Shown: positions 5,543-36,589, counted from the first letter of the stretch. The stretch: DNA of 64,000 bases from an uncultured Gammaproteobacteria bacterium (GCA_964567995.1 CAZMOB010000001.1:120591-184590); one strand, 5' to 3'. Notes: a model not told the origin generated them from the sequence alone. A program made the numbers and translations.

Positions 5543-6919
5543 CTATGTTCCCTGACGACGAATGACGATCCCGATTGTTTTGAGAAGAATGGCTGCATCC
5601 AACGCGAACGAACGGTGTTTAATATAATATAAATCGTATTGGAGCTTGATGAGATTATCATCAAGCTGAGCGGTTGGAGTGAGCCAGACGACCTGTGCCC
5701 AGCCAGTGAGTCCCGGTCGGGTCAAATGACGGAGCGAGTAATATGGCATCTTGGCGATCAGCGGCTCGACGAACTCTGGTCGTTCCGGTCGTGGGCCAAC
5801 GAACGACAGATCTCCTCGGAAAACGTTCCAGATTTGAGGCAGTTCATCCAAACGAAGTTGGCGCAAAATGCGGCCGATCTTTGTGATGCGCGGATCTAAC
5901 TTTGTACTAGAGGTGAATTGTGGGCCTTGTGCTTCGGCGTTGATATGCATCGTACGAAGTTTCCAGATCTTGATCGGTTTTCCTTGGTAACCAACCCGTA
6001 CTTGGCTGTAGAAGATTGGTCCCGGTGAGCTGAGACGAACGGCGAGTGCCAGAAATGGCATGAGAACGAGTGTTACGAGACCAAACGGAACTGCCATCAA
6101 AATATCAAAATAGCGCTTTACACTTTCATACCAATGCTTTTCGCCTTCGCGAACATGGGTCAGAAACCAACGATCAGTCACGAAACGGAGAGGAATGCGC
6201 CCGGTGGTGAGTTCTTCGATCTCTGCTCGGTCGATCAATGTTACGGAATTCAAAAGCAAGCTATAGAGTAAGCGGTCGATCCCCTCGGTTTGTTCTTGGA
6301 GCTGACCCAGAACGACCGTTGTAATTTGATGTTCTTTGACGAGTCGATCGACGTTCTCGGCCATTTGTTCTCCTGTCTCTCCCGGGGTTGGCCAGTACTG
6401 CGCCACCAGTTTGTAGCCAAGGGAGCTTTGTTCGATGAGACGCTCGACATCGGCCGATTCACTCTCAGGGCCGATGAAGAGGATACGTCCTGTGATCAGA
6501 CGACGGTCCACGAGTTGCAGGAAACACAAACGCCAGGCATAGCCGAGCAAGAGACTCAGGGTAAAAATCAAGAACAGGTTCGTTCGTGGGGCGATCCCAA
6601 ATCCGGGGATGAGATAGAAGAAGGCTAAGCCTACCAGCAGGTTGCCGATCATGCCTTCGGCGAATGAGCGGAAAATCCGGAGGGGATTACGTAATAACGT
6701 CAGATTGTACAAGCCGGCTACATAGAGTCCGGCCATCCAGAGTAAAAACAAGATGCTAAATGGAATGAGATGCGCTTGCAGGTCGCTTTCATGAATCGCT
6801 CCGTAGCGTCCAGCCAAACTCAAAATCAACGACAATTCGAAGACGAGGAAATCTCCGATCATGAGAAGGGTTCGTTTGGCGTGTTGATGACGTTTTCTCA
6901 TAAAAGGCCCGTGGCCCAT
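5543..6919 (-). CDS. Polyprenyl-phosphate sugar phosphotransferase (WbaP/bacterial sugar transferase family)
   Basis: N-terminal TM helices and a C-terminal sugar-transferase domain (..LDELPQIWNVFRGDLSFVGPRPERPEF..DLYYIKHRSFALDAAILLKT). The exact start is uncertain. Confidence 0.85.
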   Translation of the reverse strand: MGHGPFMRKRHQHAKRTLLMIGDFLVFELSLILSLAGRYGAIHESDLQAHLIPFSILFLLWMAGLYVAGLYNLTLLRNPLRIFRSFAEGMIGNLLVGLAFFYLIPGFGIAPRTNLFLIFTLSLLLGYAWRLCFLQLVDRRLITGRILFIGPESESADVERLIEQSSLGYKLVAQYWPTPGETGEQMAENVDRLVKEHQITTVVLGQLQEQTEGIDRLLYSLLLNSVTLIDRAEIEELTTGRIPLRFVTDRWFLTHVREGEKHWYESVKRYFDILMAVPFGLVTLVLMPFLALAVRLSSPGPIFYSQVRVGYQGKPIKIWKLRTMHINAEAQGPQFTSSTKLDPRITKIGRILRQLRLDELPQIWNVFRGDLSFVGPRPERPEFVEPLIAKMPYYSLRHLTRPGLTGWAQVVWLTPTAQLDDNLIKLQYDLYYIKHRSFALDAAILLKTIGIVIRRQGT

Positions 6920-6964
6920 TTTCTGGGAATACTGTACGCTGGATCGGAAAAGCTTGTCTATACT

Positions 6965-8467
6965 ATGCGTGTCGCTCCTTTCCGTTGGCTGGTTATCGTT
7001 TTTTCGCTTATATTAGCGCTTATTTCGATATTTCCGGTCCAAGCAGCGACGTTTGTTATTCCGGATAACAATAATAGATATTGGAAGCGCCAATGGTATT
7101 TGCGCCAAATTCAAGCGCCCGAGGCCTGGCGACTCCTGCCGAATACCTTCAACGAGGTCACGGTGGCGGTCATTGATGCGGGCGTCGATATTACGCACCC
7201 CGATTTGAAGGACGCAATTTGGATCAACCCCAAAGAGATCGCAGGGAATGGAATAGACGATGATCAAAATGGATTCGTGGATGATATTCATGGCTGGAAC
7301 TTCGTAGCCAATTCGAACGATGTTCGACCACAAGAAATTGCCACTCAATTGGAAGAGGCCTGGAGTCACGGCACGTTTGTAGCTTCGCTCATCGGAGCGC
7401 GGGCAGCGAATCATCCTGGGATGGTAGGAGTAAACCAATCCGTGCGTCTCATGCCACTGAATGCTCTGGATGGTGATGGGTTTGGAACGATCCCACATGT
7501 GTTGAGCGCGATTCGTTACGCGGTGAACCAAGGGGCATCGGTCATCAATTTGAGTCTGGCCGGATTCGAGAGTAGTGAAGAGTTGGCCGAGATGATCAAA
7601 CGTGCCCGTGATGCGGGCGTGCTAGTGGTAGCTGCCACGGGCAATGGGACGACCCCAGCTGGTCGAGATATCGATAGTCAACCAGTCTATCCGGTGTGTT
7701 TTGATCAACAAACCAATGATGTGGTGGGAGTGAGTGGGACGGATGCGCTGGATCAGCATGCGGAATACGCGAACTATGGAAAGCGTTGCACGGACCTGTC
7801 GGCACCGGGCTATGACTTGTTTGGAGCGCGTCCGAGTTATCCACGACGAGAAGAGGGGGCTCGTCCAGCGGAGCGCTATTTGGAAGGAATGACTGGGACG
7901 AGTTTGGCAGCGCCGCTCGTAAGTGGGGTCGCAAGTCTTTTGAAGGCGGTTCGACCTGATTTGACGGTTGATCAGCTGCATACACTTTTAACGTCGACGA
8001 CGGACAATATTGAAGGTTCACTCAAGCCGTCTGAGCAAGGCAAAATGGGAAGTGGACGCTTGAATGCGCTGAAAGCGCTCCAATCAGCGTTAGCGTTTGG
8101 ACAAATACCGACCTCAACACCCGTACTACCTGTGAATGACGTGCCTGTTACAACGAATTCGACCTCTACCGAAGAATCACCGACCGCTACCTCGTTTTAT
8201 TATCGAACACCGACGACGACTCTGCGCTGGTTAATCGCTCCTAAGCCGCTCTGGCGGCAATGGAGTATGCGCGATGGGCAACCGCTGGCGTCTGTTGTAG
8301 TCAAAGAGGGGACGAACTATGTTTTGAAGCGCTGGACGCCGGTCACGAACAAAGAAACCAAGGATCGTCTCGTTTGGAATGTAAAACGCAAACTGTATGT
8401 GTTTACAGATAGCAAGACAAAGCAAGTTTGGGAGATCGATAAGCTTGAAAAAGTAACGAGTAAATAG
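6965..8467 (+). CDS. Secreted subtilisin-like serine peptidase (S8 family)
   Basis: Frame of ORF 6770-8467. Start chosen at ATG 6965 (MRVAPFRWLVIVFSLILALISIFPVQA signal peptide) to avoid overlap with 5543-6919. Catalytic triad contexts are VAVIDAGVD, SHGTFVAS and GMTGTSLAAPLVSG. Confidence 0.88.
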   Translation: MRVAPFRWLVIVFSLILALISIFPVQAATFVIPDNNNRYWKRQWYLRQIQAPEAWRLLPNTFNEVTVAVIDAGVDITHPDLKDAIWINPKEIAGNGIDDDQNGFVDDIHGWNFVANSNDVRPQEIATQLEEAWSHGTFVASLIGARAANHPGMVGVNQSVRLMPLNALDGDGFGTIPHVLSAIRYAVNQGASVINLSLAGFESSEELAEMIKRARDAGVLVVAATGNGTTPAGRDIDSQPVYPVCFDQQTNDVVGVSGTDALDQHAEYANYGKRCTDLSAPGYDLFGARPSYPRREEGARPAERYLEGMTGTSLAAPLVSGVASLLKAVRPDLTVDQLHTLLTSTTDNIEGSLKPSEQGKMGSGRLNALKALQSALAFGQIPTSTPVLPVNDVPVTTNSTSTEESPTATSFYYRTPTTTLRWLIAPKPLWRQWSMRDGQPLASVVVKEGTNYVLKRWTPVTNKETKDRLVWNVKRKLYVFTDSKTKQVWEIDKLEKVTSK

Positions 8468-8488
8468 CCAAGTAAATAAACGTAGGGT

Positions 8489-8620
8489 GTAAGCCGGGAT
8501 GTATAAGCCCTCACTTCGGACAACAACTCGCAACTTCACCAATTTTAATCGCGTTGCGATTGTTTTAGCGGTGTTGCTCAAACACGTTGTCCTCGTTCAA
8601 GCATGTACATCCCGGCTTAC
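8489..8620. other. Structured intergenic element closed by a 15-bp perfect inverted repeat
   Basis: GTAAGCCGGGATGTA (8489-8503) and TACATCCCGGCTTAC (8606-8620) flank 102 nt. The interior holds further complementary segments (AACAACTCGCAAC / GTTGCGATTGTT; GGACAAC / GTTGTCC). Confidence 0.4.
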
Positions 8621-8630
8621 CCAGTTTTTG

Positions 8631-25804: not shown

Positions 25805-27910
<2,106 letters not shown>

Positions 27911-27941
27911 TCTTCTCACTTTTGCTCTTTTTTCATCCCAT

Positions 27942-28703
27942 ATGACTTCTTGGGATAAGCTCCTTCGTACCTTAGGCTTCACGGATAGTGAATCAAAGTT
28001 GTATCTCGTTTCCTTGGAAACCGGTCCGGCCACTGTTCAAGACTTGGCCAAAAAGGCCAAGATTTCACGTGTGACCGCCTATGCCGCCGTCGACGCGCTC
28101 ATGCGGAATACTTTGATGAGCACGATGCAACAGGGGAAAAAGCGCCTTTTCTCGGCTGAATCACCCGATCGCTTGATTTCGTTCGTGCAAAATCGCATGC
28201 AGCACATGCAATCGACGCTGAAAGAGGTCGAGGCGTCGGTCGAGGAGTTACGCTTGTTGCAACGGGGTGAGAAACCGGTCGTAAAAATGTTCACCGGAGA
28301 AGAGGGGATCCGCGCATTGCAAAATGACTTGCTACAGGTCGCGCCGAAAACATTGGATGAGGTGGCGCATTTTGACGAAGTCTTACGCTTGTATCCGACC
28401 GAAGGCAATCGTGAGTTTTTCGATAAATTAGACAAGATCCATCCCAAGCGCCGGTTGATTTTCTACAGCCGTGGCGACAATCAAATTCGTGGAGGATTTC
28501 CCGATGAGCACATCGCTGTGATCAAAGAAACAGGCCCGAGTAAATTCTTTGCCGATATCCAGGTCTATGGAAATCGAGTCGTGATGTCGACGTTGCGAGG
28601 AGAAATTATTTTTATCCTCATCGAAAGTCAGGATTTGGCGGATGCCTTTCGCGAGATGTTTGGGCACATGTGGAATAATGTCCAGGATAAACGCATCAGT
28701 TAG
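27942..28703 (+). CDS. TrmB-family transcriptional regulator
   Basis: Start moved to ATG 27942. N-terminal wHTH LGFTDSESKLYLVSLETGPATVQDLAKKAKISRVTAY plus a C-terminal TrmB-like domain. Confidence 0.75.
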   Translation: MTSWDKLLRTLGFTDSESKLYLVSLETGPATVQDLAKKAKISRVTAYAAVDALMRNTLMSTMQQGKKRLFSAESPDRLISFVQNRMQHMQSTLKEVEASVEELRLLQRGEKPVVKMFTGEEGIRALQNDLLQVAPKTLDEVAHFDEVLRLYPTEGNREFFDKLDKIHPKRRLIFYSRGDNQIRGGFPDEHIAVIKETGPSKFFADIQVYGNRVVMSTLRGEIIFILIESQDLADAFREMFGHMWNNVQDKRIS

Positions 28704-33232: not shown

Positions 33233-33309
33233 GGACGTTTAGCTCAGCTGGTTAGAGCGCACGATTCACATTCGTGAGGTCGCTAGTTCGATCCTAGCAA
33301 CGTCCACCA
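33233..33309 (+). tRNA. tRNA-Val (anticodon CAC), CCA encoded
   Basis: GGACGTT-TA-GCTC-AGCTGGTTA-GAGC-G-CACGA-TTCACAT-TCGTG-AGGTC-GCTAG-TTCGATC-CTAGC-AACGTCC-A-CCA. Confidence 0.93.
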
Positions 33310-33343
33310 CGACAATACGAAGCGGTCTCTTTGAGACCATTTC

Positions 33344-33378
33344 ATGGGCAGCCTTTACGGCTGCCCATTGTCGTTTTT
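33344..33378 (+). terminator. Rho-independent terminator after tRNA-Val
   Basis: ATGGGCAGCC-TTTAC-GGCTGCCCAT followed by TGTCGTTTTT. Confidence 0.8.
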
Positions 33379-33556
33379 CCATTGTAAGGGTGAGGTGATA
33401 GTCAAAACTCAGCAAGAAGGGTTTAATGAGCCTATGGAGACTTTATCTGACTATCTTCAAAAATGGGATGCTAAGAATTGAAAAGCTCACGATTCGATTA
33501 CTCTTTTTGATCCAGAACAGACACGCAACTGGTCTTCAGAGCAGAAGATTTCTTTT

Positions 33557-34108
33557 GTGAAGCTTTTTTATCACGCACGTGGTCATTTTCATGATTTTCT
33601 TTGGTACGTGGGGAATTTCGCACCGGATCACAAGCAGCGTCAAAAGGTCTTAGCTAATATTGCAGAAGAATTTGGAAGTTCTAAATCACATGAGCAATTG
33701 TACTTTGAATTCGCTCAAGCTGTGGGCACAGATTTGTCTAAAGAGGTTGTTGGTGGAGAAAACTATCTTCCTTTCATTCGTGAGTTCAATAAAGGGCATC
33801 TCGACTATCTCCATACTCATGATTGGGATGGGTGTCTATGTGCGTTTGCCGCCTATGAACGATTGGATAACGTAGATTATCGAGACCTATACATTCTGGC
33901 AAAAGCAATCTGTGAGAATGAGTCTGCCCTCACGTTCTTCAAGGTTCACGCATTCGTGAAGCATTTCGATATGGCAGATCAAGGAGATCTTCAAAGAATT
34001 TGGAACGCTTCGCCAGAGAAGCTAAAGAATGCGTTTGAATTCATTGCGGATCATCAAGCGAAGATGTGGAAAGCGCTCTCTGGATCAATCGAGAATGTTA
34101 TCTTTTAA
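33557..34108 (+). CDS. Heme-oxygenase-like fold iron-containing redox enzyme (TenA/PqqC/CADD/HDO superfamily), N-terminally interrupted
   Basis: FYHARGHFHDFLWYV, NIAEEFG..SHEQLYFEFA, AAYERL and FFKVHAFVKHFD resemble the helix-bundle ligand motifs of PF14518-type proteins. The homologous reading frame continues upstream to ATG 33434 through an in-frame TGA at 33479-33481. Low GC. Confidence 0.6.
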   Translation: MKLFYHARGHFHDFLWYVGNFAPDHKQRQKVLANIAEEFGSSKSHEQLYFEFAQAVGTDLSKEVVGGENYLPFIREFNKGHLDYLHTHDWDGCLCAFAAYERLDNVDYRDLYILAKAICENESALTFFKVHAFVKHFDMADQGDLQRIWNASPEKLKNAFEFIADHQAKMWKALSGSIENVIF

Positions 34109-34214
34109 TGCGACAAAGACGATCTTTGTAGGACGGAAGTCCATAAAATAACCTAAATTAGGGTTGTATCAGCTATTGGACGCGTTGTATTCTTTGGTGA
34201 TTAACTAAAGAAGT

Positions 34215-34832
34215 ATGGAAAAAGAACCAAAGGCTTTCGTAAAGAACTCTTTAGCTCAAGCCTGTGAGAAGGTGTCAGATTTTCTACCAACTCAGTCTCT
34301 TGCCAAAGAACAAAAGGCGAAGATTCTCCGAAAGTATATTGCTGCGATTGAAGGTAACTTCGTCTCTTGGATGGGGGCGGCTACTATCTGTGCTCGATCT
34401 GTGCAAGGGCGTTATGCGGCTTCAGAAAATCTTTGGGTTGAAATAAAAGATGATCATGCAGGAATGCTTCGAGATTTTGCCAAATCAGCACAATGCGAAC
34501 CTGGAATAGAGGATTACCAGGCAGCATCAGGCGCGGTGATGAGCATGAGGGGATTGGTAGCTCGCCTCTCTGGTCTTGAATGTCTCACGTTGATGGCGGT
34601 TCTAGAAAAAACTTCAGCTGTCTTCATCCCATGGTTAGAAGATGCAGCCAAAGAACTTGGATCAACGAATTTTCGCTATACGATGGTACATGGTGAAGCA
34701 GATATCGGTCATGCGGATCAATTCGCTTGGGCCGTGTCACATGAGATGGAGCTTTATGAGAACGCCGAAGAAAAAATCAATACCTCTGTTCAAGTTACCG
34801 TTGAATTCTTAAGGAATATTTTCCGCGTATAA
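34215..34832 (+). CDS. Heme-oxygenase-like fold iron-containing redox enzyme (second, divergent copy)
   Basis: NFVSWMGAATICAR, SENLWVEIKDDHAGMLRDFA, AVLEKTS and MVHGEADIGHADQF give an E/H-rich helix pattern typical of HDO/PqqC-like diiron proteins. 205 aa, low GC. Confidence 0.55.
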   Translation: MEKEPKAFVKNSLAQACEKVSDFLPTQSLAKEQKAKILRKYIAAIEGNFVSWMGAATICARSVQGRYAASENLWVEIKDDHAGMLRDFAKSAQCEPGIEDYQAASGAVMSMRGLVARLSGLECLTLMAVLEKTSAVFIPWLEDAAKELGSTNFRYTMVHGEADIGHADQFAWAVSHEMELYENAEEKINTSVQVTVEFLRNIFRV

Positions 34833-34855
34833 AGTTCTCATACATAAATGACGAT

Positions 34856-35320
34856 ATGGATCTTTGTTTTATCGCAGAAAAAGTAATCTCCCAGCTTCAT
34901 GACCGTGATTTTATATCAGGACTTACATGGAAGAATTATCATGGCTTCCTCAAATCTCGATTACCCGATGTGAAGTTCCGATTACTAGCCCATGAACTTG
35001 GCTTTGATGCTGAGAAATGCCAGGCTGAAATTGTAGAAGTTACAAAAGATCTTTCGAAGGAAATACATCTACATAGGAACTCTCGCGCCTATTGTGTCGT
35101 GCTAGGAGAAAAAGATGGTTTCGCTGATCCGCTCTATGCATCAGTCTTTCTTGGCGATGAATGGAAGCCTGTAAGAGTTGGCGATATCGTTGATATTCCG
35201 CCCAGCACTACTCATGGATTTACCATTGATAAAGGTGGGAGATTGTTTTTTCTTTCTTTACAAACTCCACCAATCGAACATGAAGGAGGGGATGATTACG
35301 AGCGGATTCATGGAAGCTAA
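34856..35320 (+). CDS. Cupin-domain protein
   Basis: EIHLHRNSRAYCVVLGE (HxH..E-type motif 1) and GDIVDIPPSTTHGF (G-x5-P-x-x-x-x-H motif 2). 154 aa. Confidence 0.65.
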   Translation: MDLCFIAEKVISQLHDRDFISGLTWKNYHGFLKSRLPDVKFRLLAHELGFDAEKCQAEIVEVTKDLSKEIHLHRNSRAYCVVLGEKDGFADPLYASVFLGDEWKPVRVGDIVDIPPSTTHGFTIDKGGRLFFLSLQTPPIEHEGGDDYERIHGS

Positions 35321-35564
35321 GGAAATACGTCAAGAACCAATTATGGCTGCTAGTAACCGCTGAAAAGGTTGACTTTTATACTGAAGTATGAGAATTTTCT
35401 CTGTAACTAAATACAATAAAACATGAATTGGAAACGGCGTTTTTAAAGCTAAGAATTGGCCTTAAAGACGCCGTTTTCAACGAAGGCTAGGGAAGCGGAT
35501 GCTCCGACCAACTAGTTACTTGTACGGCGTTCCGCAAAGCAGCGGAAGTAAGGAGGATGAGACG

Positions 35565-36014
35565 ATGGTATGGAGAGCGCAACGTACAGATGTTCACGAG
35601 GTATTCAACCCTGGTGATCCCGCGCAGCTTCAACGGAGGCTCGACGACCTCCAGATGTACATCCTGGCCCGTTCGGTCACGGTGTTCTACGAACTCGTGG
35701 GCTACTCAATGGACCAGGAAGACGCATCCTATACCTTCGCGGGGGTACGGGTCATTCTCCGTAACGGCAAGCTGCACGCCGAGTTTCGTCTGAAGATCCC
35801 GGCTCCGCCGCCGCCTGAGGTCGCCACGTACGACCTCGAGACCGGGATCTTCGACGATCATCAGCTCGGTCAGAACTGCCCGGAGAGGTTCGTAGCTACG
35901 ATCGCGCTCGCCTATGTGGCTTCCCGTTGCTATCCGGAGCGTGTCGTCACATTCAAGATGAACGGCGACGTCTTCGAGGCCGAGAACGGCGAGATCTGGC
36001 CCAAGGTCGCCTGA
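35565..36014 (+). CDS. Hypothetical protein; GC-rich ORF nested in the low-GC islet
   Basis: Frame of ORF 35499-36014. Start moved to ATG 35565, which is preceded by AAGGAGG (8-nt spacer). MVWRAQRTDVHEVFNPGDPAQLQRRLDDL.. I recognise no family. Confidence 0.55.
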   Translation: MVWRAQRTDVHEVFNPGDPAQLQRRLDDLQMYILARSVTVFYELVGYSMDQEDASYTFAGVRVILRNGKLHAEFRLKIPAPPPPEVATYDLETGIFDDHQLGQNCPERFVATIALAYVASRCYPERVVTFKMNGDVFEAENGEIWPKVA

Positions 36015-36589
36015 TCAGCAAAAGAACGTATCTGCGTCGCTCCTTTCACTCTTGGTTCCGAGTACAGGAACACGTCAGGCCAGCGTCACTCGCTGCGGCC
36101 CATAAGGATGTCCTGGCCATCCAAACCCCTTTTACATTCTCTTTGAGGATGAAAGAGGAGAATATATCAGCTTAAAGGCTGGTATTTTCAGTTATAAAAA
36201 ATTCTTCAAAGATCCACCAGTCAATAGGCTATCAATGTTTTATTTTTTCTCAGTTGTCCCACCTTGCATCCCCTCATCCCTCTTGGTTTCAGTTTCCCTC
36301 AGAGCCAGTCAACAGCCATGAAAGAAAAAATAGAAATTGGTGGTCAGATTTTGCGACTGGAAATAGGTTTGAGCCTCGTTGTTCATGTGACAGAGCCATC
36401 ATGACAAGCACGGGTCAGGCAAACGAGAGTATGTGTAACCGAATTTTTCGCTTATTTTAGCCAAAATATCAGAGTCAACCTTTTTTGCTACTTGGATTAA
36501 TACTATCAGATTTATAATATAATGTCAATAGTGGCTTAGATGTCAAGGCGATTGAGCCTTTCCGAGGCTTCTGTTAAGCTCTGCCTAGT

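Follow-up and report, generated by a model that had tools for sequence, protein, structure and literature searches.

A small mosaic islet beside a tRNA-Val gene carries members of two heme-oxygenase-like dimetal oxidase families and a cupin

Heme-oxygenase-like dimetal oxidases (HDOs) provide a quickly growing source of unusual oxidative chemistry. To our knowledge, nearly all characterised members come from the natural-product clusters of bacteria with large genomes. The six metal ligands of these proteins are a Glu and a His in core helix 1, a Glu in core helix 2, and the residues of an HxxxDxxH motif in core helix 3 (PMC13133933). In SznF, the HDO domain is followed by a fused C-terminal cupin (PMC13108848), and a seventh Glu is present 26 residues before the first ligand (E189 in SznF, E98 in RohS; PMC13133933). 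In CADD (CT610), a self-sacrificing 4-aminobenzoate synthase, Tyr27 is the sacrificial residue and Lys152 the amine donor (PMC11965152). Here, we describe an interval of about 3.3 kb (positions 33310-36589) in a 64,000 nt stretch of DNA, called the window in the following, that was deposited as part of the genome of an uncultured Gammaproteobacteria bacterium (GCA_964567995.1, CAZMOB010000001.1:120591-184590). The interval directly follows the 3' end of a tRNA-Val gene and carries an interrupted gene for one HDO family protein (HDO1), an intact gene for a second (HDO2), and a gene for a small cupin. An initial annotation had read the three genes as an oxygenase cassette that could be a horizontally acquired module. 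The reading that we favour, with reasonable though not strong confidence, is that a small mosaic accessory islet has formed on the 3' side of tRNA-Val by separate acquisitions and does not represent one pathway.

The two helical proteins are members of the HDO superfamily, as judged by profile comparison and, for HDO2, also by the modelled fold. The Pfam PF14518 profile scores 36.9 bits for HDO1 and 32.9 bits for HDO2, against a gathering cut-off of 28.9 bits. The motifs that had been read from the sequence for the three genes, NIAEEFG..SHEQLYFEF, FFKVHAFVKHFD, ENLWVEIKDDHAGML, MVHGEADIGHADQF and GDIVDIPPSTTHGF, were all found again. The description of the two proteins as divergent also holds: the mutual hhalign comparison gives an E-value of 0.24. 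HDO1 and HDO2 were considered as recent paralogs and rejected as such on this value, yet their ligand positions align in register. The metal ligands themselves are complete in HDO2 (six of six) and incomplete in HDO1 (five of six, with the Asp missing).

HDO2 (34215-34832, plus strand) is an intact, stand-alone protein of 205 amino acids that carries all six canonical HDO ligands. In the alignment of its family (27 sequences, down to 44% identity), E76, H81, E131, H159, D163 and H166 are invariant, as is E46, and E71 is nearly invariant. A soil-bacterium relative with 35% identity (L030), the only one that was examined, shows these motifs as well. The AlphaFold2 model of HDO2 has a pLDDT of 95.9 and a pTM of 0.92, and its helices are interrupted at 46-47, 79-80 and 159-160, where ligand residues are located. 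Neither the HDO2 sequence nor the family profile finds a sequence relative in the PDB. At the level of structure, Foldseek places CADD first by E-value (1.7e-4, TM-score 0.70-0.74), and the highest query TM-score (0.76) is obtained for the lysine N-oxygenase HrmI. BesC (0.70), UndA and TenA are found as well, and the TM-scores for CADD, TenA, UndA, BesC and HrmI are 0.6-0.76. The core helix 3 motif of HDO2, HGEADIGHA, aligns residue for residue with HEEADVRHA of CADD. E46 is located at the break of the second auxiliary helix, 25 residues ahead of E71; it is a possible seventh Glu ligand, a candidate by its position. Judging from its ligand residues, HDO2 would most likely bind two metal ions (Fe/Fe or Mn/Fe), activate O2, and oxidise a common small metabolite. 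Both the metal binding and the O2 chemistry are predictions.

From its modelled fold and the alignment of its family, the third protein is identified as a cupin in which three His residues are invariant. It is a monocupin of 154 amino acids (34856-35320, plus strand), encoded 23 bp 3' of HDO2. The AlphaFold2 model (pLDDT 88.9) has a barrel behind an N-terminal helical segment, and Foldseek matches it to the small monocupins archaeal phosphomannose isomerase, Pac13 and TM1459, with E-values of 4e-7 to 1e-5. The Pfam Cupin_2 score is 17 bits, under the cut-off of 27.2 bits. H71, H73 and H120 are invariant across the family, which comprises just seven clusters in a search of 5.8 billion proteins. 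The earlier description as a cupin is borne out by the fold, and the three His residues form a putative metal-binding cluster, but the motif given for it, HLH..E, was inexact. The sequence reads E69-I-H71-L-H73-RNSR, and the Glu that is canonical for motif 1 does not follow the His pair. The cupin is probably co-transcribed with HDO2. The unit is likely ended by an inverted repeat (I3, 35428-35480, plus strand), which has 25 nt arms of 84% complementarity and a 3 nt loop, is followed by TTTTC, and may act as a terminator.

The three same-strand genes of the initial annotation correspond to open reading frames (ORFs) at 33557-34108, 34215-34832 and 34856-35320, but the first of them is the remainder of an interrupted gene. 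Full-length HDO1 homologs have 219-246 residues and begin at a Met equivalent to an ATG at 33434, and the DNA similarity to the L009 homolog, which is 80% identical, starts at this same ATG. In the window, the ATG is followed by a plus-strand 5' fragment of 15 codons (33434-33481, with the stop included) that ends in an in-frame TGA at 33479-33481. The rest of the gene (33482-34108, plus strand), which contains the PF14518 region, can be called as an ORF only from a GTG at 33557 (183 amino acids). Translation in the same frame upstream of this GTG gives METLSDYLQKWDAKN, the stop, and KAHDSITLFDPEQTRNWSSEQKISF, and then continues with VKLFYHARGHF. The TGA is codon 16, and an Arg occupies this column in P0044, P0046 and P0047, the three full-length homologs nearest to HDO1. 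Around the stop, the window reads AAT TGA AAA, compared to AAT CGT GAA in the L009 homolog. The same TGA is present in L001, which is a separate Logan assembly of this organism. TGA terminates 10 of the 65 ORFs in the window, which indicates that the host uses the standard code and that TGA is a true stop. A recoded TGA or a selenocysteine codon was considered and rejected, because TGA is a stop in this host and the closest homologs have Arg, not Cys or Gly, at this position. The HDO2 and cupin genes contain no in-frame TGA. A product of 183 amino acids would miss the first 41 residues, including the family-invariant W11, F25 and F41. HDO1 is probably either a young pseudogene or expressed as an N-terminally truncated protein of 183 residues.

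The profile of the HDO1 family matches CADD/CT610 in the PDB nearly over the full length (E-value 1.4e-7) and BesC with an E-value of 6e-6; hhalign gives a probability of 92% for the match to CADD, and the HDO1 sequence alone matches BesC at 1e-3. The conserved ligands are E79, H86, E142, H172 and H177, five of the six canonical ones, with HxxxxH where HDOs normally carry HxxxDxxH. The family has more than 156 clusters, with members in contigs similar to those of the Candidate Phyla Radiation (CPR), in an Aenigmarchaeote, and in Rickettsiales, Paracaedibacteraceae, Coxiellaceae and Tatlockia.

The location and the base composition set the interval apart from its surroundings. The tRNA-Val gene (anticodon CAC, 33233-33309, plus strand; identified by ARAGORN, and by Rfam RF00005 with 67.9 bits) forms the left anchor of the islet. 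It is followed on the same strand by a terminator-like element (33344-33378), in which a hairpin with a 10-pair stem, seven of the pairs G-C (33344-33368), precedes the T-run TGTCGTTTTT. The DNA that follows had been described as AT-richer directly after the tRNA and its terminator, and this is correct: in 300 nt windows, the GC content is 0.39-0.46 from approximately 33350 to 35450, compared to a mean of 0.514 for the window. HDO1, HDO2 and the cupin are three of the four ORFs with the lowest GC content among the 65, and relative to 60 host ORFs their z-scores are -2.2 to -3.1 for GC and -2.1 to -3.4 for GC at third codon positions (GC3). The description does not extend to 35450-36050, where the GC content is 0.55-0.60 and where a fourth ORF on the same strand had been passed over. 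The interval is thus a mosaic and not AT-rich throughout, and it combines the lowest and nearly the highest GC3 values of all genes in the window. The islet is compositionally foreign and lies at the 3' end of a tRNA gene. Below-average GC content also occurs elsewhere in the window, for example at 59-63 kb (0.45-0.49).

The occurrence of the islet genes in other genomes argues against a conserved cassette. We assembled 54 homolog loci with 618 kb of neighbourhood and searched them by tblastn with all islet proteins. They comprise HDO2 loci from 35 species-representative genomes and several metagenome contigs, seven HDO1 loci, and four cupin loci (L010-L013). Two or more of the islet genes occur together only in L001, which is from the same organism, and in no other of the 54 loci. 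The HDO2 loci, both the 35 from genomes and those from metagenomes, are without the cupin, and the cupin loci are without any HDO. The idea of a three-gene oxygenase cassette is not supported by these loci. The horizontal acquisition that had been proposed with it is in keeping with the foreign composition and the patchy families. The close relatives of HDO2 (44-75% identity) are found in Uhrbacteria, Saccharibacteria, Paceibacterota, Aenigmatarchaeota, Woesearchaeota, Nanoarchaeota and some metagenome-assembled genomes (MAGs) labelled Gammaproteobacteria. They are always lone genes among unrelated neighbours, such as those for NUDIX proteins, pyrophosphatase, GrpB, valyl-tRNA synthetase, IF-2/RbfA and ribosomal proteins. 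The patchy spread of the families over CPR, DPANN and intracellular Proteobacteria argues against vertically inherited core content. Several of the MAGs with the closest HDO2 homologs are titled 'uncultured Gammaproteobacteria' (L015, L017 and L018); as the other close members belong to CPR and DPANN, such labels may be unreliable. The host of the window is probably also of the CPR type. A metabolically reduced host is plausible from the gene content within the 64 kb (DUF5671, DUF3048, TrmB).

In other CPR-type genomes, homologs of HDO2 and of the cupin recur downstream of tRNA genes, and HDO homologs also occur near recombinases. HDO2 is found about 160 bp after a tRNA-Leu in L019 (7756-8597), 170 bp after a tRNA-Asn in L021 (3448-4297), and approximately 1-1.4 kb after a tRNA in L002 (about 1 kb after a tRNA-Glu, 6875-8618) and L017 (6498-8630). 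The cupin homolog follows 17 bp after a tRNA-Leu, behind a LAGLIDADG-like gene, in L010-L013 (L010:7124-7707). HDO1 is flanked by genes for integrases or recombinases in L009 and L050, and such genes are near HDO2 in L018, L017, L005 and L008. The homolog has a higher AT content than the DNA around it in 16 of 21 loci. A defence-system or phage origin of the islet was considered and discarded, as there is no PADLOC or PHROG match and there are no relatives in INPHARED, PLSDB or IMG/VR.

In the favoured interpretation, the flank of tRNA-Val would be an accretion zone, or hot spot, in which separately acquired single-gene cargo piles up, and this cargo would circulate in the CPR, in DPANN and in intracellular bacteria. 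That the genes were acquired independently is what we infer from their separate distributions. HDO1 would belong to a family that moves among host-dependent microbes (CPR, DPANN, Rickettsiales, Holosporales-like bacteria and Legionellales), with the copy in the window inactivated or truncated by the nonsense codon. HDO2, which is intact, would probably still function as a dimetal O2-activating enzyme, the three-His monocupin would be transcribed together with it up to the inverted repeat, and the GC-rich orphan ORF and non-coding DNA described below would complete the interval.

Several observations weigh against this interpretation. The similarly low GC content of the three genes, their common strand and their tight spacing are also compatible with acquisition in one event and with an operon. 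As had been noted initially, there is no integrase anywhere in the window, and we detected no integrase remnant either. The window also contains no second copy of the tRNA 3' 20-mer (allowing up to three mismatches) and no long direct repeats that could be attachment (att) sites. Neither tblastn searches of INPHARED phages and PLSDB plasmids nor IMG/VR yielded relatives of the islet families. The contexts of the very closest homologs are outside the set of loci; these are P0003 and P0004 for HDO2 (68%), P0044 for HDO1 (81%) and P0165 for the cupin (57%). Finally, synteny at the site can be compared with one close host relative, L051 (71% amino acid identity in PrmC, 74% nucleotide identity over 3.1 kb), which shares L25, DUF3048, PrmC and tRNA-Val with the window. 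The similarity ends at 33311, at the 3' end of tRNA-Val, with other DNA beyond. L051 covers no more than 288 bp beyond the tRNA, at a divergence of about 26%, which makes the break a weak indication of a recent insertion.

The remaining parts of the interval add to its mosaic appearance. The fourth ORF (35565-36014, plus strand) could encode 149 amino acids; its ATG follows AAGGAGG, a strong ribosome-binding site, and the longest form of the ORF starts at 35499. It has a GC content of 0.587 and a GC3 of 0.727 (z-score +2.9 versus host genes), with AT-rich segments on either side. The sole real match among 1.84 billion representative proteins is the protein itself, and Pfam, NCBIfam, PADLOC and PHROG yield no family match. 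Three non-self matches were dismissed as low-complexity or Ig-repeat proteins without BLASTP alignment, and the ORF is an orphan. The right flank (36015-36589, 575 nt) is AT-rich and non-coding, as annotated, with a GC content of 0.424. It has no Rfam match, no ORF above 82 amino acids and no gene remnant, and its fold z-scores are -1.5 and -0.5. A search for structured RNAs or riboswitches in the non-coding parts of the interval returned only the tRNA from Rfam, and the fold z-scores there are unremarkable. A promoter scan found seven sites, which is no excess over the 4.4 +/- 1.9 expected from shuffled sequence. Two overlapping sigma-70-like promoter matches (10/12, with extended -10 TG) are present on the minus strand at 36500-36546, directed leftward into the non-coding flank.

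The neighbourhoods of HDO2 homologs provide a few functional hints. In L023, a Nanoarchaeota MAG (5847-8097), a gene for a 272-residue protein overlaps HDO2 on the upstream side, and a flavin-reductase-domain gene abuts it downstream. The latter arrangement fits an enzyme that requires a reductant, and it is plausible that the flavin reductase domain protein serves as the electron donor. TrmB-type regulators are found near HDO2 in three loci. In L017 (7132-7875) and L024 (7108-7848) they are divergent neighbours; in L023 (5077-5796) the regulator gene is on the other strand, with a distance of about 0.9 kb, upstream of HDO2. The window itself has a TrmB gene (27843-28703), related to those near HDO2, at a distance of approximately 6 kb from the islet. 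L017 contains two HDO2 family paralogs about 5 kb apart (2404-2922 and 7995-8630; 56% and 34% identical to HDO2 of the window), together with three genes for TrmB-like regulators and one that resembles an integrase gene. More distant HDO2 relatives (30-37% identity; L026-L049, for example L030:7926-13197) occur in Rokubacteria, Acidobacteria, Thermoleophilia and others. They are located in conserved clusters with two AMP-binding ligases, a short-chain dehydrogenase/reductase (SDR) and a hexapeptide acyltransferase. These clusters resemble those for lipid or acyl tailoring, which might be a hint to the substrate class.

The neighbourhoods of HDO1 homologs in Proteobacteria are of a different kind. 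Four of the five proteobacterial loci have a histidine kinase gene that is translationally coupled to HDO1, as it either overlaps HDO1 or comes after it at 10 bp or less (L014:2086-4078, L052:6001-8889, L053:6001-8585 and L055:5001-8129). These loci are from a Rickettsiales endosymbiont and from MAGs of a Paracaedibacteraceae member, a Coxiellaceae member and a gammaproteobacterium. The N-terminal part of the kinases, approximately 190 residues, is hydrophobic, looks like a multi-pass membrane region, and has no Pfam match. Two of the four, L052 and L055, continue with a response regulator gene, whereas a receiver domain is fused to the Coxiellaceae kinase (L053). Pairs of heme oxygenases with phytochromes, and of H-NOX proteins with kinases, are known, and by analogy the HDO1 family could produce or detect a signal that is passed to a two-component system. 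This explanation does not apply to HDO1 of the window, which is interrupted and has no kinase gene next to it. The literature held nothing specific on the islet families, on pairs of HDOs and histidine kinases, or on HDOs in CPR bacteria or Rickettsiales.

The most serious alternative to separate acquisitions is that HDO2 and the cupin work together as a split, two-step oxidative module of the SznF design, whether or not HDO1 is part of it. In such a module, the HDO would carry out an N-oxygenation and the cupin a rearrangement, so that a small molecule is made or modified. The order of the two genes on the same strand, separated by the 23 bp spacer, is that of the domains in SznF (PMC13108848). 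The cupin has three invariant His residues, E46 of HDO2 is on an interrupted second auxiliary helix with nearly the same distance to E71 as the extra Glu of SznF and RohS has to the first ligand (25 versus 26; PMC13133933), and the N-oxygenase HrmI has the top TM-score for HDO2. However, the adjacency of HDO2 and the cupin is limited to this organism among the 54 loci. The HDO2 sequence, the HDO2 profile and the cupin profile do not find SznF among PDB sequence matches up to an E-value of 10, and SznF is outside the top 50 Foldseek matches of both the HDO2 and the cupin models. The cupin fold matches generic small cupins instead, and HDO1 is interrupted. Unlike in SznF, the HDO and the cupin are not fused, and HDO2, with its 205 residues, has no dimerisation domain. 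The resemblance to SznF, which the initial annotation had pointed out, is architectural only, and we consider a split SznF module unlikely.

More speculatively, HDO2 might be a minimal self-sufficient oxygenase, perhaps CADD-like and self-sacrificing with a different product, that is distributed as one-gene cargo of tRNA hot spots among the ultra-small symbionts of both domains (CPR bacteria and DPANN archaea) to supply a missing metabolite, and that in this genome may in addition have been paired with a three-His cupin as a split SznF-like module. Taken as a whole, this idea is improbable.

According to another proposal, one or both HDOs could be self-sufficient synthases of cofactor precursors of the CADD type, for example self-sacrificing 4-aminobenzoate synthases, that patch an auxotrophy of a reduced genome. 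CADD (PDB 1rcw, 8va9) shares the seven-helix heme-oxygenase-like fold; it is the best PDB profile match of the HDO1 family and the best Foldseek match of HDO2, which also has the local HxEADxxHA motif in common with it. The ligand positions E81, H88, E142, H174 and H181 of CADD are matched in HDO1 and HDO2, and D178 in HDO2 only. Moreover, CADD and both islet HDO families are alike in being solitary genes in host-dependent microbes, which suits an enzyme without pathway partners. The more specific comparisons do not support the proposal. The CADD family model (NCBIfam TIGR04305) has a cut-off of 200 bits, but the full-length HDO1 homolog P0044 scores only 39.6 bits, and HDO2 gives no match. 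The column of the sacrificial Tyr27 contains D, N, Q, K or I in the HDO1 family, and that of the amine donor Lys152 D, E, Q, T and other residues. In HDO2, the Tyr27 region is unaligned and Lys152 falls into a deletion, at low alignment confidence. No folate biosynthesis genes are present among the called or annotated genes that flank the islet or the homolog loci, and HDO1 of the window is interrupted. A CADD-type function, which had been raised at the outset, is therefore quite improbable.

Least of all do we expect the interval to be ordinary, vertically inherited, lineage-specific DNA with a low GC content from local mutational or expression bias: the absence of an integrase and of att repeats and the other regions of below-average GC content would fit, but the sequences closest to HDO1 and HDO2 come from a scatter of bacterial and archaeal phyla and from unrelated contexts (45-80% identity), L051 has different DNA past the same tRNA, and the interval mixes GC3 extremes.

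With separate acquisitions as the preferred reading, there is nothing unusual about the islet, which would be a small zone of accretion next to a tRNA in which one gene decays, and its HDOs are additional members of a known superfamily in an otherwise unremarkable accessory setting. The families and their contexts are the more promising leads, and the value of the locus is that it points to two uncharacterised HDO families, to a rare cupin family, and to the pairing of HDO1 with histidine kinases. All three families travel as solitary genes in organisms whose metabolism is very reduced (CPR, DPANN, Rickettsiales and Legionellales). Should HDO2 prove active, it would be a convenient minimal model, as a stand-alone enzyme with a full ligand set. 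Episymbionts are usually regarded as fermentative, and an active HDO2 would be a hint of O2-dependent chemistry in such organisms.

In comparison with the other described systems, neither HDO belongs to the CADD, BesC or TenA families. The islet HDOs have the PF14518-type fold in common with BesC, HrmI/BelK and UndA, which are substrate-triggered HDOs that act on amino or fatty acids. The BesC equivalog model of NCBIfam scores 24 bits, compared to its cut-off of 500 bits. Unlike BesC, HrmI and UndA, the CPR and DPANN members are without a biosynthetic gene cluster, and only the soil-bacterium relatives of HDO2 with 30-37% identity adjoin AMP-ligases, an SDR and a hexapeptide transferase. The likeness of HDO2 to TenA (thiaminase II), another early suggestion, is one of fold (TM-score 0.55-0.65) and lacks sequence support: there is no TENA_THI-4 match in Pfam or NCBIfam for the islet HDOs, and metal ligands are conserved instead. 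As to the locus as a whole, the islet differs from tRNA-targeted islands in its small size, in its mosaic composition, and in being without an integrase, an att direct repeat and mobility genes. It resembles them in its start at the 3' end of a tRNA gene, in its deviant composition, in the synteny break at this point, and in the presence of homologs near tRNA genes and integrases elsewhere.

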